A stretch of 64,000 nucleotides of DNA from Promethearchaeota archaeon (GCA_016839765.1 JAEOTP010000015.1:93474-157473); one strand, 5' to 3'. Shown: positions 406-10,504, numbered from the stretch's first letter. Numbers and translations are program-made. Notes: a model not told the origin generated them from the sequence alone.

Positions 406-801
406 ATGGGGAAAAAAAAGAAAATTCGCGAGGAATTTGACGAAATCTTTAAGAGTGGCAACGAAAAGGCTATCAAAAAAATGTTAGACAAATTTCCGTG
501 GTTACTCGATGAAGTATCTACTGAAATGAACAAATTAATGGAAGATCAACACCAAGTCATTTCTGCTTTAGGTGTAATGGAAGATGAGCTTGGTGGTTCG
601 GTCCCTATTGATGAAATCGTATTTTCTCTAAGAGTTGATTTTGATATTCGTATGTCTGAAGAAAATGTATTGAAAATTTTAACTGAAATTGAAGAGCTTG
701 GATTAGTAAAAAAAGATGTAAATGGTTGGTTATTAACAAATGAGGGAGGAAAAATTTGCGATGATTATCTTAATAAAAATATTCATAAATTAGAGCTCTA
801 A
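406..801 (+). CDS. Small hypothetical protein with C-terminal winged-helix-like segment
   Basis: 131-aa ORF. The C-terminal part (VPIDEIVFSLR...EENVLKILTEIEELGLVKKDVNGWLLTNEG) has the helix-turn-helix plus beta-wing pattern of wHTH domains. No family recognised. Confidence 0.55.
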   Translation: MGKKKKIREEFDEIFKSGNEKAIKKMLDKFPWLLDEVSTEMNKLMEDQHQVISALGVMEDELGGSVPIDEIVFSLRVDFDIRMSEENVLKILTEIEELGLVKKDVNGWLLTNEGGKICDDYLNKNIHKLEL

Positions 802-950: not shown

Positions 951-3900
951 TTGATGGTTAACATGAATAATCAAAACAAAGATAAGGATTCAAAAGAAAA
1001 GCTTGATGCAAATGATGATGAAATTCGGGAAAGTGATTTTGATACATTTTTTGCTGATTTAGATAATATAGAAGAGGAAATATCATCTGAAGCATATGAA
1101 TTAGTAGTACACGCATTATCCTTAATTGAGGGGCATTACTATGACGATGCAATAGAAGTTTTACGTCAAGCAATTGGTTTATACAGTCAGATTAATAAAA
1201 ATGCTGAAATAGAAGCCCTCAATAAAAAAATTTCTGAGATATATGTATTAAAAGAGGAATATTTTCGGGAAACTGAGACGGAAACAATCATTGAAGTATT
1301 TGAAAAAGAGGATGATAAGAAAGAATTCTTCAATAAAGCTTATGAGATAATAGAAAAGGGTAAAGAGTTTATGAATCTGGAAAAATTTGAGGACGCACTT
1401 GACAAATATGATGAAGCAATTGAAATATTTCAAAAAATAAATAATAATGATGAAATTGAGAAGGTAAATAAATTCATTGAGGAATGCTACAATAAAAAAG
1501 CTGAATATCTTAAAAGGTCTAAAAAAGAACCCGTCCTTATACAAGAAACTATAAGAATCAAAGCCCAAACTGAATTGAGTGAAGAAGAATTAAAGCAACA
1601 AAGAATTATGGCATTTGAAGAAGCTAAAAGACGAGAAGAAGAAATATCGAATAAAGCCTTCGAAATACTAGGTAAAGCTTCTGAACTTGCTAAAATCCAC
1701 CAATACGATCAAGCAATTAACTTATATTTACGAGGTTCGACATTATTTGAGGATATTAGCTGGTTAAATGAATCTAAAAAGGTAAGAAATACAATTGAAC
1801 AATTAGAAAAACAAAAAGCTAAATTTAATGCAGAAATGGAAGTAAGAAAAGCCCAAGAAGAGAAAATACTTGAAGAACAAAAAGCAGCAGAAATGATTGA
1901 AAAAGCTCAAATTGAAGAACAAATCAGATTTCAAGCTCAAGCAGAAAAATTAGCAGATATAGAAAAAAGGAAAAGGGAAGAGGAACTATTTAAAAATCAG
2001 ATTACGGAAATGATCGATAATGCGGAGAATTTAGCTAGAGAATATGATTTAGCAATGAAGAAAGCAATTAAAAAAGGTTATTTATTAGAAAATTGCGTGT
2101 ATCCAGAGGTTATGGCTATCTATGAAGAAGTAAAGAAAAAGGTAGCCGAGAAGGGTTGGATAGATCAGATAAAAATTTATACTAATCAAATAAGACACTA
2201 CGAAGACTTATTAGATAAAGATAAAAAATTACGTCAAATTGAGGCTCAGAAACTTGAAAAACAAAGGCAATATGAAGATTTACACAAAATTAAAAAAGAA
2301 GAAAGAATTTCAGACTTAGATAATGATAGATTAAAAATATTAGAACAACAACGACGATTGGAAGATGAAGAAGAAGAATTTAGAAAAATGGTTGATCAAA
2401 TGATCAATAATGCGGAAAAGTTAGCGCGGGAATATGATATTAGCTTTAAAAAAGGTATAAAGAAAGGGAATTTAAATTTTGAGTCAAAATATCCCGAGAT
2501 TATAGAAAACTATACCCAAGCTAGAAATTTAGTCTTAGAGAAAGGATTAGATAGAGAAGGAGCTATCTATTCGAACCAAATCCGTAAATATTCAGATTTA
2601 TTTGAAAAAGAGAAGAATGTACGAGAATTAGAAGCCCAAAAAGCTAAAAAACAATTAGAATTTGAAGAAATGAAAAAAGTAAAAAAAGAGGGTGAGATTC
2701 TTGGAACAGATACTCAAAAAATTAAACAAATTGAAGCAAAAAAGAAATTAGAACAAGCTGAAGAAATCTTTGAAACTGAAATTGATCAAATGATAGATGT
2801 TGCAGAAAAAGAAGCACGAGAATATGAACTTGCTATTAAACGCGGTAAATTTGAAAATGAATGCCCCTATCCTAAAATTATTGAAATTTATAAAAATATT
2901 AGAGAAAGAGTCTATGCAAAAGGTTGGACTGAGGAAGCAAAACTCTATACTAATCAAATTATACTTCATCAAGAAAAATTAAAAAAAGATAAAAATTTGC
3001 GTGAATTAGAAGTAGAAAAAGTAAGAAAACAGCAAGAATTTAAAGAATCATTTAAGAAACCTAAAATGGTTAAACTACCAAAAATGGCTAAATTAGAAGA
3101 AATTGAAAAGAGAGATACGCAGGATGAACAGTTGCTAGATGAAGCAATGATTCTTATAAATGAGGCTGAGAATGAGGTAAAAAGTTATGAATTAAGCTTG
3201 AAAAAAGACATTCTTATTTACCAAAGTCCTTATGATAAAGCTATTTCTAATTATAAAAGAGCAAGAAATCTATTTAAACAAGTAGGATGGTCAGAAGAAG
3301 CACATAGATTACTTAACACCATCAACTTTTACAAAGAGAAGAAAGCAAGAGATGATAATTTAAGAGAAATTGAAAAACAAAAATTAAAAAAAGTAAAATT
3401 AGAGGAAGCAAGAGCTAAATATATACCTGAACAAGAACCATTTGCTAGAGAGCAAAAAATTATCGATCTTGAAAAGTTTAAGAAAGAGAAGACTAAAGAT
3501 TCTGAAGCTATATTTAATTTAATCAATAAAGCTGAGAGATTGGCTCAAGAATATGAAGTTAAAAAGAAGGATGGAATTTTAAATATTGATTCTCCATTTC
3601 AAGAAATAATTAATATTTATAAAGATGCGAAAGAACGGTTTGTAGTAATAGGATGGAATGAACAAGCAGGGCAATTAACTAATTCAATTAATTATTATAA
3701 AGAAAAATTAGAAGCAGATAACAGATTGAGAGCTTTAGAAACTCAAAAGTTAGAGCAAGAAAAGAAAAAAGAAACAAAAAGAAAGTTAGAAACACAATTA
3801 GCACGAGAAGCTGAAGCTGAGTTATTGAAGCAAAAAACACAATCGCTCGATTTAAAAAGAAAGCAAGCTTTAGAGTATGAAGCAAAAAAAGAGCAAGCTT

Positions 3901-5084
3901 TCAATTTCATGGATCTAGCAAAAAAAGAAATGAAGCATAATAAATTTGAGAAAGCTATAAGATTTTATAAAGATAGTGAAAAAATCTTTGCTGAAATCAA
4001 TTGGCCAGAAGGAATACGGATGGTAAACGAGTCTATAAAAGTAATAAAAAAGAAAGAGGAAGCTATTGAAAGAGATAAGAAGATTTTAAGACAAAAAGAA
4101 GAGGTGAAGTTGAAGATGGAAGCCCAATTGGAGGAACAAATTACCAAAGCTCAAGATCTTAAAGATTTGCAAGAAAAAAAACGAAGAAAAGAGATATTAG
4201 CAATACAACAACAGCAAGAATATGAAAAAGGAGTATCAGAACAAGCATATAGGTTATTAGAAGATGGAACTGCATTAAAAAAGATAAAGAAATTTGAGGA
4301 AGCTTATGAAAAATATATTATGGGAAGAAATCTCTTTGAAAAAATTGGTTGGGTCCATGAGGTTAGTCGTATTAACAATGATCTTTTATTTATTCTTAAA
4401 AAGGAGATGAAACAAACAGAAAAAATCAGAGCCATGCAAAAACGGAAACTAGAAGAAGAAAAAGAGCTTGAAGTTCTATTAAAGGAGGCTGAAGAAAAAC
4501 GTAAAGAACTTGAAAAAGTTAAAAAAGAAGAAAAAAGAAAGCAGAGAGAATTAATTATACAAGAAAAACTAGATGAGGCAAATAATATTATAAAAGATTT
4601 GAAATATAACGAAGCAATCTTAAAATTCAAAAAGGTTATTAGAAAATTGGAAAAAATCGGTCAAAAAAAACAAATAAAACAAATAAATAAACAAATTGAG
4701 GTATTAAAGAATGCTAGTCAAGTCCCTTTAATTACTGTGGATGATGTTGAGAGTAATGAAAATATGGGTAAATTTAAAATTACTTATGAGGCTTTAGATA
4801 GAGCACAGATATCTTTATCGGGAAATCAATTTATGAAAGCTATCTCAGAACTAAACGAAGCTAACTTCAATTTAAAAGAGACGATCATTGGAACAAAATA
4901 TATTCCGATAATTAAAGAGAAAATTAATGCTTTTAAGAAAGAATTAGGTATTAAAGTAGAAACAGAAGAGAAGGTGAAAATTGAAAAAGCTGAGGATGAA
5001 GAAGATTTTCTGAGAGTAAAAATCGCTGCTCGAAGAGCCGAACGTAGAAAAAGAATAAAAGATTTGTTAGAAAAAAAGGAATAA
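951..5084 (+). CDS. Giant K/E-rich repeat protein with about 12 three-helix TPR/MIT-like modules joined by charged coiled-coil linkers
   Basis: Uninterrupted 1377-aa ORF (TTG at 951, ATG at 954). Recurrent modules, e.g. FFNKAYEIIEKGKEFMNLEKFEDALDKYDEAIEIFQKINNNDEIEKVNKFIEECYNKKAEYLKR. Five longer units share [IL]I[DN]xAExxAREY[DE] ... YPxII..Y ... GW..EA..YTNQI..Y...L.KDKNLRELE.QK. Confidence 0.85.
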   Translation: MMVNMNNQNKDKDSKEKLDANDDEIRESDFDTFFADLDNIEEEISSEAYELVVHALSLIEGHYYDDAIEVLRQAIGLYSQINKNAEIEALNKKISEIYVLKEEYFRETETETIIEVFEKEDDKKEFFNKAYEIIEKGKEFMNLEKFEDALDKYDEAIEIFQKINNNDEIEKVNKFIEECYNKKAEYLKRSKKEPVLIQETIRIKAQTELSEEELKQQRIMAFEEAKRREEEISNKAFEILGKASELAKIHQYDQAINLYLRGSTLFEDISWLNESKKVRNTIEQLEKQKAKFNAEMEVRKAQEEKILEEQKAAEMIEKAQIEEQIRFQAQAEKLADIEKRKREEELFKNQITEMIDNAENLAREYDLAMKKAIKKGYLLENCVYPEVMAIYEEVKKKVAEKGWIDQIKIYTNQIRHYEDLLDKDKKLRQIEAQKLEKQRQYEDLHKIKKEERISDLDNDRLKILEQQRRLEDEEEEFRKMVDQMINNAEKLAREYDISFKKGIKKGNLNFESKYPEIIENYTQARNLVLEKGLDREGAIYSNQIRKYSDLFEKEKNVRELEAQKAKKQLEFEEMKKVKKEGEILGTDTQKIKQIEAKKKLEQAEEIFETEIDQMIDVAEKEAREYELAIKRGKFENECPYPKIIEIYKNIRERVYAKGWTEEAKLYTNQIILHQEKLKKDKNLRELEVEKVRKQQEFKESFKKPKMVKLPKMAKLEEIEKRDTQDEQLLDEAMILINEAENEVKSYELSLKKDILIYQSPYDKAISNYKRARNLFKQVGWSEEAHRLLNTINFYKEKKARDDNLREIEKQKLKKVKLEEARAKYIPEQEPFAREQKIIDLEKFKKEKTKDSEAIFNLINKAERLAQEYEVKKKDGILNIDSPFQEIINIYKDAKERFVVIGWNEQAGQLTNSINYYKEKLEADNRLRALETQKLEQEKKKETKRKLETQLAREAEAELLKQKTQSLDLKRKQALEYEAKKEQAFNFMDLAKKEMKHNKFEKAIRFYKDSEKIFAEINWPEGIRMVNESIKVIKKKEEAIERDKKILRQKEEVKLKMEAQLEEQITKAQDLKDLQEKKRRKEILAIQQQQEYEKGVSEQAYRLLEDGTALKKIKKFEEAYEKYIMGRNLFEKIGWVHEVSRINNDLLFILKKEMKQTEKIRAMQKRKLEEEKELEVLLKEAEEKRKELEKVKKEEKRKQRELIIQEKLDEANNIIKDLKYNEAILKFKKVIRKLEKIGQKKQIKQINKQIEVLKNASQVPLITVDDVESNENMGKFKITYEALDRAQISLSGNQFMKAISELNEANFNLKETIIGTKYIPIIKEKINAFKKELGIKVETEEKVKIEKAEDEEDFLRVKIAARRAERRKRIKDLLEKKE
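1983..3740 (+). repeat. Five tandem in-frame coding repeats (units of about 122-131 aa, about 366-393 nt) inside the giant ORF
   Basis: Units start at aa 345, 476, 605, 727 and 852 of the 951..5084 product. Each has an AREY[DE]/AQEYE helix, a YP/SP loop, a GW motif, an NQI/NTI/NSI helix and an LR.[IL]E.QK linker. Confidence 0.75.
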
Positions 5085-5130: not shown

Positions 5131-5346
5131 TTATATTAATTCTTGAATTTGGTTTTCTATATCTGTTTGGATAATACTAGGATTGAGATTCCTTTTTACA
5201 GATTCTTCTATTAGATATTCTGTTTTTATTAAATCTCTAATCCCCACTCGTATAGCTTCTGAGCGATTTGGGAACTTACCTTCTGCAACTAGTATCTCTA
5301 AAACTTTTAAATATGATTCTGGCAAATTAACTGAGATTAACCTCAT
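5131..5346 (-). CDS. Ribbon-helix-helix (CopG/NikR-N-type) DNA-binding protein
   Basis: 71 aa. N-terminal beta strand plus two helices (RLISVNLPESYLKVLEILVAEGKFPNRSEAIRVGIRDLI) is the classic RHH signature. Confidence 0.7.
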   Translation of the reverse strand: MRLISVNLPESYLKVLEILVAEGKFPNRSEAIRVGIRDLIKTEYLIEESVKRNLNPSIIQTDIENQIQELI

Positions 5347-7091: not shown

Positions 7092-8069
7092 TTGAATAAA
7101 TTAGAAAAACCCTGGGTAGAAAAGTACAGACCAAGGAAATTCGATGAAATTGTTAGTCAAAGCATAGCAGTAAATAATTTACGTAAGTTTACTAATTCTG
7201 GAAATATGCCTCACTTGATTTTTTCTGGACCGGCTGGCACTGGAAAAACAAGCACTGCATTAATTATTGCAAGGGAGATGATTAAAGGGGAGAAGTATAT
7301 TAGAAATGTGCTTGAATTAAACGCTTCAGATACAGTTAGAATGGACTATGTTAGGAGCGTAATTAAGGATTTTGTAAGTCAAAAAATGATAATAGAGGAA
7401 AATTCTTTAAAATTTATAATCCTAGATGAGGCAGACAATATTCCAGGGCAAGTTCAGCAGGCTCTTAGGAGAATAATAGAACAAGCGTCTAGCAATGTTA
7501 AATTTATATTATTGTGTAATTATATTAATCGAATTATTGATCCGATTGTTTCTAGATGTGCTGTATTTAGATTTGTTAATCTGCCTGAAAGTGAAATAAC
7601 TGAAAGATTGAAATATATTACTAAACAAGAGAAAATTAAATTTCCACAGGATAAGCAGGAAATCTTCTATAAAATGCTTTTCTTTATATCTGGTGGTGAT
7701 CTAAGGAGAGCAATTAATACTCTACAAATGTCTGTAGCACTTGAATTAATAGAGAATTTAGATCTGAATGAAATTTTAAGAATATCAGGTTTCTTAGATA
7801 ATACAACTTTAGATAAATTAATTAACACAATTAAAACTAAAGATTTTAAAGCTTCTAAACAAATTATTGAGGGTGTAGGTAATTTTGATAGTCGCAATTT
7901 CATAAAACAGCTAATAAACGTCCTTCCCAAACTTAACATTAATCATCAAAATTTGAATTCGATATTATCATATATTGGTACTATTGATTATCGAGTAAAT
8001 CAAGGTGGAGATAAAAATATTCAATTAACCTCTCTTATTGCTGAAATAATTAAAAGTATTAATAATTAG
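7092..8069 (+). CDS. rfcS: Replication factor C small subunit
   Basis: All RFC boxes present: KPWVEKYRP, Walker A GPAGTGKTS, LELNASD, Walker B IILDEADN, SRC arginine-finger motif, GDLRRAIN. TTG start. Confidence 0.9.
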   Translation: MNKLEKPWVEKYRPRKFDEIVSQSIAVNNLRKFTNSGNMPHLIFSGPAGTGKTSTALIIAREMIKGEKYIRNVLELNASDTVRMDYVRSVIKDFVSQKMIIEENSLKFIILDEADNIPGQVQQALRRIIEQASSNVKFILLCNYINRIIDPIVSRCAVFRFVNLPESEITERLKYITKQEKIKFPQDKQEIFYKMLFFISGGDLRRAINTLQMSVALELIENLDLNEILRISGFLDNTTLDKLINTIKTKDFKASKQIIEGVGNFDSRNFIKQLINVLPKLNINHQNLNSILSYIGTIDYRVNQGGDKNIQLTSLIAEIIKSINN

Positions 8070-8087
8070 CCTTTTATAGTGTTTTAA

Positions 8088-9134
8088 TTGAGTAAAGAAA
8101 TTCCGATTTGGCGAGTTAAATATTTTCCAAACACATTAGAACAAATATGTGGAAGGGAGAAATTAAAAGGAAGGTTAAATAGTTTTATTAAATCAAACAA
8201 CTTTCCTCACCTATTACTAGCTGGTCCAGAGGGTATTGGAAAAACCACTATAGCTACATTATTTTCAAAAGCATTTTTAGGTGATTTATTTAATCCAAAT
8301 TTCAGGATAGTATACGCAGATATACCTCTGACAAGCGAAGAAAGGAAACAAGCTCGGACTGAAGCATATGTTTCAAAAAGCAAAATTGGGAGCTTAGCAG
8401 GAAGGACAATTACTACTCCCGCATTTTTACAATTGAAAATTAAACCATTTATCCAATTAAAAGTATTTGGAGGTGCTTCGTTTAAAATCTTAATTATAAA
8501 AAATTTTGAAGCGTTGGGTTCAAATCAGCAAGGATTTCGACGTTTAATGGAGAGTTATGGGACTAATTGTCGTATGATTTTAATCACAACTAACATTTCA
8601 AGTATTATTGACCCTATTATCAGTCGTTGCCAACTTTTAATAATTTCTGCAGCCGATTATACCTCGTTTAAAAATCTAATTCTTGATATTGCTAATAAGG
8701 AATCATTAATCGTTAAGAATAAAACGATTGAATTGCTTTATAGAATAACCGAGGGTAAAATATCTAATGCTATTGATTTATTGCAACTAAGCAGCATAAA
8801 TAGTAAAAATGTTGATCTAAATAAACTATATGATAATTTAATTAGCTCACAAAACGAATTAATTAGAAGTTTATTATTATTATCCTTTAAGGGAGATTTT
8901 TCAAAAGCAAGAGAATTATCTCGTAATATTCAAGCTAGTTACAGATATACAGCTCATGAAATTTTTAAATTATTACTCAATGAGTTATTAAAGCTACCAC
9001 TTAGTACGTTTAGCAAGTGTAAATTAATTGATTTAATTGCAAACGCAGATTTTAGAGCAATTGATGGTTTAGATTCAGATATTCAAGTCTCTAATCTAAT
9101 AGCTAAAATTTGTTATTTTTCAGAATTTATATAG
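8088..9134 (+). CDS. Divergent RFC small-subunit paralogue with degenerate Walker B
   Basis: Retained: Walker A GPEGIGKTT and SRCQLL. Degenerate: box II (WRVKYFP), DEAD replaced by KNFE (nt 8499-8510), no LELNASD box. The Walker A to Walker B spacing is roughly 25 residues longer than in the upstream gene. Confidence 0.75.
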   Translation: MSKEIPIWRVKYFPNTLEQICGREKLKGRLNSFIKSNNFPHLLLAGPEGIGKTTIATLFSKAFLGDLFNPNFRIVYADIPLTSEERKQARTEAYVSKSKIGSLAGRTITTPAFLQLKIKPFIQLKVFGGASFKILIIKNFEALGSNQQGFRRLMESYGTNCRMILITTNISSIIDPIISRCQLLIISAADYTSFKNLILDIANKESLIVKNKTIELLYRITEGKISNAIDLLQLSSINSKNVDLNKLYDNLISSQNELIRSLLLLSFKGDFSKARELSRNIQASYRYTAHEIFKLLLNELLKLPLSTFSKCKLIDLIANADFRAIDGLDSDIQVSNLIAKICYFSEFI

Positions 9135-9142
9135 GTGATTTA

Positions 9143-10504
9143 GTGCCAAGTAAGCTTAAAAAAAATATTCCTTGGGTAGAAAAATACCGTCCTCAATCTA
9201 TTAATGATATGGCTTTACCGACAGCTAAAATTAAAGGGCATAAAGTAAAACTAAATGAAGATTTAAAAAATTTCATCGAGTATTTCTTCAAAGAAATAGA
9301 GCAAATTAATATTAAGAATAGAAAAATTAGGCAATTTAATCGAACTCATCTGGAAAAAGAGCAAAAAGAGGTATTAAAAATTGCCCCAGAAAAAGCCGCA
9401 ATCCTTCTTGAGGGGCCTCCAGGAGTCGGTAAAACTTCTATAGTGTATGCTTTGGCCAATGATTTAAATATGCAGGTCATCGAAACTAATGCCTCTGATA
9501 CTAGGACAAAAGCTAACTTAGAAGCTAAGTTAAAAGAAACTGTAAAAACTAGAGGAATAATGGATTATATTATGGAAAGTAAACGTAAATTAATACTTAT
9601 TGATGAGGTTGATGGTATTTATGGAGTTTCTGATCGAGGAGCATTACCTACTATTTTAAATTTAATTGAAAGCACTCAGTTTCCAATAATTTTATGTTCA
9701 AATGAATATAAACAGAATTTACAACCAATATATAATAAAATTAAAAAGTATGAGATTAATCCTCTTCCAGATCAAGAAATTTTAAGAGTTGCGAAAAGAA
9801 TACTTAAAGAAGAAAAGATTTCTGATTTAAGTGAGGAGGATTTACATTTAATTATTGAAAAAAATAATGGAGATCTTAGAGGAACCATTAATGATATACA
9901 AGCATTAAGTCAGGGGGTTATGGATAAAGAATATAAAGATTTAATATTGAAATTACACAGAGATAGTTATGAAGAGATTTTTAAATTAATAAGAGATTTA
10001 TTTCAAAAAGTAAGAACCCTTAAGGAAGCTCGCGGTTTAACTGATAAATCTGATGTTGATTATAACTTTCTTTATAAATGGGTGAATGAAAATCTACCTA
10101 ATTTTATTAATCTTAAGAATGAAATTACCAATGCATATGATAATCTATCAATTGCAGATGAAATTTTTGGGAGAATAAGGAGAAATCAATATTGGTCACT
10201 TTTACCTTATTTCTACGATCTTTTTGCTGGGGGTGTTGCTTTATCCAAGTCTGATAAATCTTCCAAACCCGGATTTCGAAGAGTTTCCTTTCCTCGATAT
10301 AGAACCTCTGGGTTTTTCGCAGTAACAGCCACTGAAAAATTATTTACTGAAAAAATACAAGAAAAATATAATATTTCTGAGAGGGAAATAATTCAGGATT
10401 TTCTCCCATTTTTAAGGACACTTTGTAGAAGCTCAAGAAGACAGTTAAAAGAGATAGCAGAATGGCTAGAATTAGACGCAAAAGAGAAAAAATTATTAAA
10501 ATAA
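9143..10504 (+). CDS. rfcL: Replication factor C large subunit
   Basis: IPWVEKYRPQ, Walker A GPPGVGKTS, ETNASD, Walker B LILIDEVDG, GDLRGTIND. I prefer the GTG at 9143, preceded by GGTGA at 9134-9138 and lying just after the upstream stop. The track ORF opens at 9110. Confidence 0.85.
   Translation: MPSKLKKNIPWVEKYRPQSINDMALPTAKIKGHKVKLNEDLKNFIEYFFKEIEQINIKNRKIRQFNRTHLEKEQKEVLKIAPEKAAILLEGPPGVGKTSIVYALANDLNMQVIETNASDTRTKANLEAKLKETVKTRGIMDYIMESKRKLILIDEVDGIYGVSDRGALPTILNLIESTQFPIILCSNEYKQNLQPIYNKIKKYEINPLPDQEILRVAKRILKEEKISDLSEEDLHLIIEKNNGDLRGTINDIQALSQGVMDKEYKDLILKLHRDSYEEIFKLIRDLFQKVRTLKEARGLTDKSDVDYNFLYKWVNENLPNFINLKNEITNAYDNLSIADEIFGRIRRNQYWSLLPYFYDLFAGGVALSKSDKSSKPGFRRVSFPRYRTSGFFAVTATEKLFTEKIQEKYNISEREIIQDFLPFLRTLCRSSRRQLKEIAEWLELDAKEKKLLK

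Follow-up and report, generated by a model that had tools for sequence, protein, structure and literature searches.

A giant Asgard archaeal protein built of about twelve MIT/TPR-like three-helix modules: a possible multivalent scaffold

What could be the role of a very long, highly charged and internally repetitive protein whose relatives are all named 'hypothetical'? This question is raised by a gene lying at positions 951-5084 (+ strand) of a 64,000-nucleotide stretch of DNA from a Promethearchaeota archaeon (GCA_016839765.1, JAEOTP010000015.1:93474-157473), hereafter the window, which is AT-rich (GC 25-36%). Its open reading frame (ORF) is intact, with 1377 codons open from a TTG at position 951. 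A preliminary description of the locus had proposed a protein of 1377 amino acids; the open frame stands, but the start codon is probably the ATG at 954, because orthologues begin with MVNMN..., and the length is then 1376 amino acids (residue numbers are nonetheless counted here from position 951). Glutamate (16.6%) and lysine (16.0%) together make up 33% of the residues, and the net charge is near neutral. No NCBIfam model for the giant protein was found, and SUS1, the only match of the whole protein in a phmmer search of the PDB (E 0.032), was set aside as a chance match. In our evaluation, based on sequence comparison and structure prediction, there is about an even chance that the protein is a soluble, cytoplasmic, elongated, multivalent and length-variable scaffold or tether, formed by a string of MIT-like docking sites.

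The repeated organization is visible within the protein itself. Sliding-window self-BLAST aligns the units at residues 343-450 and 473-580 with 49% identity (E 1e-33), and the units near residues 601, 724 and 844 are related too. A hidden Markov model (HMM) seeded with module 2 alone and iterated inside the protein, in which a new module was added only after its detection at a domain E-value <=1e-3, recovered 11 modules, starting at residues 47, 129, 235, ~352, ~482, ~611, ~733, ~857, 982, 1098 and 1207. A twelfth module, at about residues 1272-1332, has three helices in an AlphaFold2 model, and its self-similarity is weak. Module spacing is regular, at 116-131 residues. With a profile of the central unit, the five central modules start at residues 345, 475, 605, 726 and 848 (periods of 130, 130, 121 and 122 residues) and extend over residues 345-436, 475-566, 605-692, 726-813 and 848-935. 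The preliminary description had listed the starts of about 12 modules, had singled out five central units as a near-regular tandem array and had called for repeat detection; HMM and AlphaFold2 agree with those starts within a few residues, the periods of 121-130 residues bear out the array, and self-BLAST and HMM iteration reveal real internal repeats.

The modules are not all of one kind. The first three, N1, N2 and N3, are mutually related in hhalign profile comparisons (97-98%), and N3 is related to the central modules (95%), with reversed-sequence controls below 1% in both cases; at the level of sequence profiles, N3 connects the short modules with the central ones. The latter form a derived subtype, in which helix 1 is longer and which has its own signature, AEKxAREYE...PYxEIIxIY...GW...YxNQIxxYxEKLEKDxKLRxIE, present in each of them.

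The fold was modelled with AlphaFold2 on two orthologue-segment alignments taken from genome loci, covering residues 36-310 (70 sequences, pLDDT 85.7) and 840-1377 (50 sequences, pLDDT 80.5). As the preliminary description had supposed, the modules are predicted to consist of three helices: in all of those modelled the secondary structure is helix-turn-helix-turn-helix, with turns of 2-3 residues, helices of ~18-24, 17 and 22-26 residues and module pLDDT mostly of 86-98. Judged from this secondary structure and from sequence, the modules are probably isolated three-helix units of the TPR/MIT clan. Helix 3 of the fifth central module and helix 1 of module 9 are predicted to be parts of one unbroken helix of 93 residues (residues 903-995), and a continuous helix at residues 1019-1111 likewise runs into helix 1 of module 10. 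The models contain low-confidence breaks at residues 115-120, 192-208, 1145-1163 and 1337-1350, and module 11 is followed by a conserved non-helical motif, SQVPLIT. Both ends of the protein carry recognizable elements: an N-terminal aromatic motif, SDFDTFFADL in the window protein and DPTKEAFFSDL in most orthologues, and a C-terminal helix with the family consensus LrxrIAaRReERRKkvldLl, whose Arg/Lys-rich character is shared by orthologues from the neighbouring family.

The linkers measure 22-63 residues across the protein and 54-63 residues in the central array, where 54-70% of the residues are D, E, K, R or Q. They begin with a conserved DxKLRxIExxK motif and have an i/i+4 salt-bridge density of 0.13-0.24 per residue; for comparison, a single alpha-helix (SAH) was defined by more than 75% E/K/R with dense i/i+4 pairs, and a coiled coil by a continuous heptad. 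Conserved hydrophobic positions are sparse, so that the linkers do not appear to be a classical heptad coiled coil. The K/E/Q-rich heptad linkers of the preliminary description thus keep their charged and Q-rich character, and the word heptad is an overstatement.

To which known family do the bundles belong? The gathering cut-off of the Pfam MIT family (PF04212) is 30 bits. The whole protein matches it below that value (E 1.4e-5, 25.5 bits), and TPR matches are weaker. Ten of the twelve modules were scanned singly against Pfam, modules 5 and 8 being left out. N2 gave the best MIT match (28.5 bits, E 1.7e-6, positions 2-65 of 66) and was the only module on which TPR_1 and TPR_2 reached 18-19 bits (18.8 for TPR_1); N3 matched MIT with 24.8 bits, the E-values of the two modules falling between 1e-6 and 1e-5, N1 had a weak match to SNAP, and no relevant Pfam match was found for the other seven. 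Across orthologues, N3 matches MIT in 15 of 16 (E <=1e-3, best 1.5e-8) and TPR families in none of the 16, and N2 matches MIT and TPR_1 in 7 of 23 each. Against the PDB, the N3 profile retrieved consensus TPR proteins together with the MIT domains of VPS4A (1yxr, E 1e-6; 2jq9), VPS4B, MITD1 and calpain-7; the N2 profile retrieved marginal TPR matches only. As hhalign reference, 27 MIT domains of Vps4 proteins encoded throughout the phylum were aligned. Similarity to this reference was high for N2 (88.7%, E 2.6e-6, 65 columns) and N3 (85.9%, 32 columns), whereas N1 (7.7%) and the central modules (2.5%) showed none; controls with reversed sequences scored at most 2.5%, and at most 1% for N2. N2 and N3 can therefore be regarded as MIT-like by sequence, just under the family threshold, and N1 and the central modules connect to MIT only through N3. 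Other repeat classes fitted less well: there are no three or more contiguous 34-residue hairpins, as in stacked TPRs, since linkers separate the modules, and the sole spectrin match was Spectrin_SYNE1, on N2 (E 0.018).

These comparisons refine what had been expected of the modules. The one quoted in the preliminary description as following the MIT pattern (residues 126-190) is N2, the best MIT match. Its wider proposal of a poly-MIT array holds for N2 and N3, and finds no direct match in N1 or in the five central modules; similarly, the suggested profile check of the modules against MIT and TPR returned sub-threshold MIT matches for N2 and N3, and neither family for the central modules.

The family has a narrow distribution and is well preserved within it. 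A word-indexed search yielded at least 290 relatives of 800-2270 amino acids, all from Asgard metagenome-assembled genomes (MAGs), in agreement with the Asgard setting assumed at the outset. In a HMMER search with a profile of the C-terminal 538 residues, 291 of 1.84 billion representative proteins matched at E <=1e-3, and those among them that are named are all Loki/Promethearchaeota. Of 400 genomes of the phylum, 106 were matched by the N1 profile, and all 106 belong to a single GTDB family (f1; 11 of 85 genera); the N1 signature is encoded, in an intact orthologue or a fragment, in 89 species genomes. The central-module profile matched 137 genomes, in f1 and the neighbouring family f3, with single weak matches in f4 and f31. 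The protein family is limited to a single order of the Asgard phylum. Some database labels disagree with this picture. Orthologues at five loci (L011, L013, L014, L028 and L073) are in MAGs labelled Odin-, Thor-, Hermod- or Hodarchaeota, and, given that the N1 signature is found in one GTDB family only, these submitter labels look unreliable. A further contig (L027, DATKTW010000079.1), with a clear orthologue, is labelled 'Nanopelagicaceae bacterium' and is probably mis-binned.

Module number varies considerably among relatives: HMM detection gave 9-18 modules in 31 sampled relatives, some of which are partial sequences, and 8-25 in syntenic orthologues. In one orthologue from a closed genome of 6,035,313 bp (L153, positions 2378-4943; G138:C1) there are 6.7 tandem copies of a 381-nucleotide (127-residue) unit with 95% nucleotide identity, which indicates a recent tandem amplification in that orthologue. 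Module number thus changes by tandem duplication. No DNA-level repeats were found in the window gene, whose copies are consequently old and maintained. The gene is under purifying selection: against two close orthologues, the ratio of non-synonymous to synonymous substitution rates (dN/dS) is 0.28 and 0.19 overall, 0.18 and 0.11 in the modules, and 0.44 and 0.34 in the linkers. Helix 2 of N1 (YYDDxIExLRQAIGLYxQI) is nearly invariant, and its polar residues are invariant across 70 orthologues; conserved residues of surface type are R72/Q73 in this helix and AREYE and GW in the central units. The preliminary description had named lineage restriction without constraint as grounds for abandoning its proposal; the restriction, to one order, is real, and the lack of constraint is contradicted by the overall dN/dS values of 0.19-0.28.

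How might such a protein work? MIT and TPR units are docking sites for short helical or peptide motifs, and, by analogy, each bundle may dock a motif of this kind. The twelve small three-helix bundles of the TPR/MIT clan would be strung on charged helical connectors, and, where helix 3 continues unbroken into helix 1 of the next module, docking sites would be placed roughly 11 nm apart, a figure obtained arithmetically from the 93-residue helix minus the back-tracking helix 2. The whole would be a rod or tether of ~0.1 micrometre, able to engage many copies of a repeating or polymeric partner, and module number, which varies from 8 to 25 among relatives, would tune its reach. Candidate ligands are ESCRT-III tails, the terminal motifs of the protein itself and the winged-helix-like protein encoded directly upstream. 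A more specific version, which we regard as improbable, is that of a clade-specific cytoskeletal ruler or template running along an ESCRT-III or Lokiactin polymer and gripping one subunit tail every ~11 nm; the number of repeats (8-25) would then set the length or the curvature of the assembly, and the protein would be an MIT-based counterpart, among the prokaryotes most closely related to eukaryotes, of rulers of the nebulin type.

Several observations weigh against the idea of a scaffold of MIT-like docking sites. None of the ten modules scanned singly reaches the Pfam MIT cut-off, and, across orthologues, the central modules gave a direct MIT or TPR match in 0 of 25. The top 50 Foldseek matches of the multi-module models include no significant match, no MIT and no spectrin, but TPR proteins only (LGN, alpha-SNAP and KLC, the kinesin light chain; E >=2.6e-3, TM-score ~0.2); Foldseek is, however, no test of MIT membership, because long TPR targets outrank 70-residue domains. 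The pTM of 0.33-0.35 in both AlphaFold2 models means that the mutual arrangement of the modules is not predicted, and prolines in two central linkers (residues ~703-712 and ~826-832) segment the molecule, which cannot be one rigid rod. The genomic context adds two further points: the giant gene, on contig C64, shows no linkage to the ESCRT genes (contig C33 holds Vps4 and an ESCRT-III gene at C33:84096-84725, and contig C57 a second ESCRT-III gene at C57:49557-50018), and in families f4 and f7 the gene that follows the upstream winged-helix-like gene is not a giant.

This upstream gene, encoding 131 amino acids, directly precedes the giant gene on the same strand in 80 of 80 loci. The C-terminal half of its product gives weak matches of winged-helix/S19e type, and the protein may be a partner or a regulator of the giant protein; as an ESCRT-II-like protein it was rejected, the matches being generic winged-helix/S19e ones. 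The 131-residue gene has a wider distribution than the giant one, occurring in 140 of 400 genomes and in 29 genera from across the class. In genera g2 and g6 of f1 and in family f3, where it occurs without the N1 signature, the next gene is a multi-module giant of 1055-2434 amino acids, and the pair is conserved at the level of the order. The smaller gene can also exist alone, so that a functional link with the giant is no more than a possibility. The two genes are separated by a 150-nucleotide AT-rich spacer, which could hold a separate promoter. The giant gene is followed downstream by an RHH gene in convergent orientation, small ORFs, a GNAT gene and an RFC operon. The RFC neighbourhood was considered as a functional context and rejected: the whole block is syntenic across the clade, and adjacency to RFC and the other genes consequently carries little information. 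The coordinates of the main features are collected in the table.

Table. Features of the giant gene, of its product and of its surroundings in the window (positions counted from the first nucleotide of the window)
Feature	Position	Strand	Basis
131-residue gene directly upstream, C-terminal half winged-helix-like	406..801	+	Adjacency; weak S19e/winged-helix matches
Gene for the probable 1376-residue protein	954..5084	+	Open ORF; orthologue N-termini
Acidic N-terminal region, residues 1-46, with conserved aromatic motif	951..1088	+	Orthologue N-termini read directly
Module N1, residues 47-104, most conserved module, no direct MIT match	1089..1262	+	HMM, orthologues, AlphaFold2, hhalign
Module N2, residues 129-186, best MIT-like module	1335..1508	+	Pfam, hhalign, orthologues, AlphaFold2
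Module N3, residues 235-292, MIT-like	1653..1826	+	Pfam, hhalign, PDB profile match, orthologues
Five central modules with linkers, tandem array	1983..3755	+	Self-BLAST, central profile; AlphaFold2 for the fifth unit
Module 9, residues 982-1037, short type	3894..4061	+	HMM, AlphaFold2
Module 10, residues 1098-1152, short type	4242..4406	+	HMM, AlphaFold2
Module 11, residues 1207-1254, then SQVPLIT motif	4569..4712	+	HMM, orthologues, AlphaFold2
Module 12, residues ~1272-1332	4764..4946	+	AlphaFold2; weak sequence similarity to other modules
C-terminal basic helix, residues 1347-1376, ending ...EDFLRVKIAARRAERRKRIKDLLEKKE	4989..5078	+	AlphaFold2 model; orthologues
RHH gene (CopG-type), 71 residues, convergent with the giant gene	5131-5346	-	RHH_1, 25.8 bits, above cut-off
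RFC small subunit, second small-subunit-like gene and RFC large subunit, contiguous	7092-10504	+	Syntenic across the clade

The same genome encodes several further module-bearing proteins detected by the module HMM, some of them with weaker matches. One paralogue, of 1650 amino acids with 13 short-type modules (C23:14138-19090, - strand), lies immediately upstream of a ThiF-type ubiquitin E1 gene (C23:12454-14028, - strand, 203 bits), with an E2 gene nearby (UQ_con, 88 bits; C23:9987-10508, + strand), and paralogue and E1 are likewise adjacent in 6 of 11 informative genomes (three genera). This is the sole contextual hint linking the module family to ubiquitin/ESCRT, and it concerns the paralogue, not the window gene. 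A small protein of 222 amino acids consists of two central-type modules (C60:11515-12183, + strand). At 85 nucleotides upstream of its gene, an ORF resembles, by eye, the C-terminal part of a small Ras-like GTPase.

Among the other explanations, the one closest to the multivalent scaffold makes it ESCRT-III-specific: a poly-MIT protein binding the MIM-type tails of two ESCRT-III proteins, which would template, bundle or measure polymers, or compete with Vps4. The resemblance of N2 and N3 to the Vps4 MIT domain speaks for it, as does the presence in the genome of Vps4 and two Snf7-family genes; the paralogue that adjoins the ubiquitin E1/E2 genes points the same way, and Asgard ESCRT-III proteins carry MIM1/MIM2-like tails, according to PMC7240154. 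However, the gene is on a different contig from the ESCRT genes, and the other ten modules lack direct similarity to MIT, including all the central ones, which carry their own signature. Furthermore, Vps4 is present in 52 of the 61 genomes sampled from the phylum and, being nearly universal, makes co-occurrence with the giant gene uninformative; as the giant family is restricted to one order, ESCRT evidently works without it. We consider such ESCRT-III specificity unlikely. A structural rod or self-assembling cytoskeletal element, spectrin- or coiled-coil-like, seems to us doubtful, yet has more in its favour. In this case the bundles would be folding knots or points of self-association rather than receptors, and might be bound by the conserved N-terminal FF motif and the C-terminal basic helix of neighbouring molecules. 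The predicted continuation of helix 3 into the next helix 1, as in spectrin, the conservation of both termini and the regular spacing of 116-131 residues are consistent with a rod; so is the start of the tail, acidic-L-R-x-(K/R)-(I/L), which is shared with the MIM1 pattern. On the other hand, a spectrin repeat is much longer than one of these bundles, no continuous heptad is evident in the linkers, and similarity to spectrin amounts to the Spectrin_SYNE1 match in Pfam, with none in the Foldseek top 50. The tail, moreover, has no third MIM1 leucine, and the resemblance fades in orthologues of the neighbouring family. The C-terminal helix was for these reasons, an Arg occupying the third Leu position, rejected as a MIM1 motif and is kept as a weak lead.

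The surroundings of the gene could instead suggest a nucleic-acid- or chromatin-associated scaffold, acting through the basic C-terminal helix and the winged-helix protein, in a conserved gene block that ends with the RFC operon. The invariable presence of the winged-helix gene, the nearby RHH gene, the RFC genes downstream and the Arg/Lys-rich tail would all fit, but the synteny of the whole block deprives RFC adjacency of most of its meaning, other families of the class possess the winged-helix gene and lack the giant one, the overall charge of the protein is neutral, and Pfam and NCBIfam scans of it found no recognised DNA-binding domain; we judge this role very unlikely. An unconstrained low-complexity expansion, or a non-functional ORF, might be suspected from the K/E-rich composition, the restriction to one lineage and the variable copy number. 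It is effectively refuted, and retains almost no probability, in view of the dN/dS of 0.19-0.28, the spread over 89 species genomes with an intact orthologue or a fragment, and the invariant polar residues; conserved synteny, and old, maintained copies in a gene free of DNA-level repeats, argue in the same direction.

The family is of interest for several reasons. MIT domains serve as the standard receptors of ESCRT-III tails, and eukaryotes are not known to use more than two of them in one protein. A protein restricted to Asgard archaea that carries 8-25 MIT-derived bundles at fixed spacing would put the MIT module to a new use; should the bundles bind a polymer, it would also be a new accessory of the cytoskeleton or of membrane remodelling in the lineage closest to eukaryotes. 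No description of such an array was found by keyword in the ESCRT surveys PMC11188069, PMC8970359 and PMC7240154, or in the other literature searched. Closed genomes from the same order also carry orthologues, and one or more of these genomes may come from a cultured strain, which makes bench tests of these ideas feasible. Whether or not the ligand is ESCRT-III, this is a well-defined, strongly conserved and uncharacterised family of proteins of ~160-320 kDa.

The nearest known relative of the modules is the MIT domain of Vps4/CdvC (VPS4A, PDB 1yxr and 2jq9), likewise a three-helix bundle of ~65-70 residues in the TPR clan. In comparison, helix 2 of the window modules is ~4 residues shorter, scores fall below the Pfam cut-off and ten of the twelve modules match only indirectly; unlike Vps4, the protein has twelve copies of the bundle instead of one, and no AAA ATPase or other catalytic domain. 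In ULK3, calpain-7 and Vta1, two adjacent MIT domains are joined to an enzyme or adaptor domain. Such tandem-MIT proteins (ULK3, PMC4475061; calpain-7; Vta1/LIP5) also have more than one MIT-type bundle per chain, a multiplicity to which avidity or selectivity for ESCRT-III tails is attributed in eukaryotes, whereas the present family has 8-25 bundles, helical connectors of ~55-60 residues and nothing else attached. TPR proteins, such as LGN/Pins, alpha-SNAP and kinesin light chain, share the helix-turn-helix hairpin with the A..L..A...Y..A motif; their units stack directly into a superhelix, and those of the window protein are predicted to be isolated three-helix bundles. With spectrin the window protein has in common a last helix that continues into the first helix of the next unit to form a modular rod, but the period is ~106 residues in spectrin and 116-130 here, where the bundles have ~17-25 residues per helix and ~45-50 residues of connector lie outside the bundle. 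Finally, ER/K single alpha-helix spacers and molecular rulers (the SAH of myosin VI/X, and nebulin) offer examples of charged helical connectors and of a repeat number that sets length; the connectors of the window protein differ from an SAH in carrying the DxKLRxIExxK motif, a moderate i/i+4 density and, in some of them, prolines.

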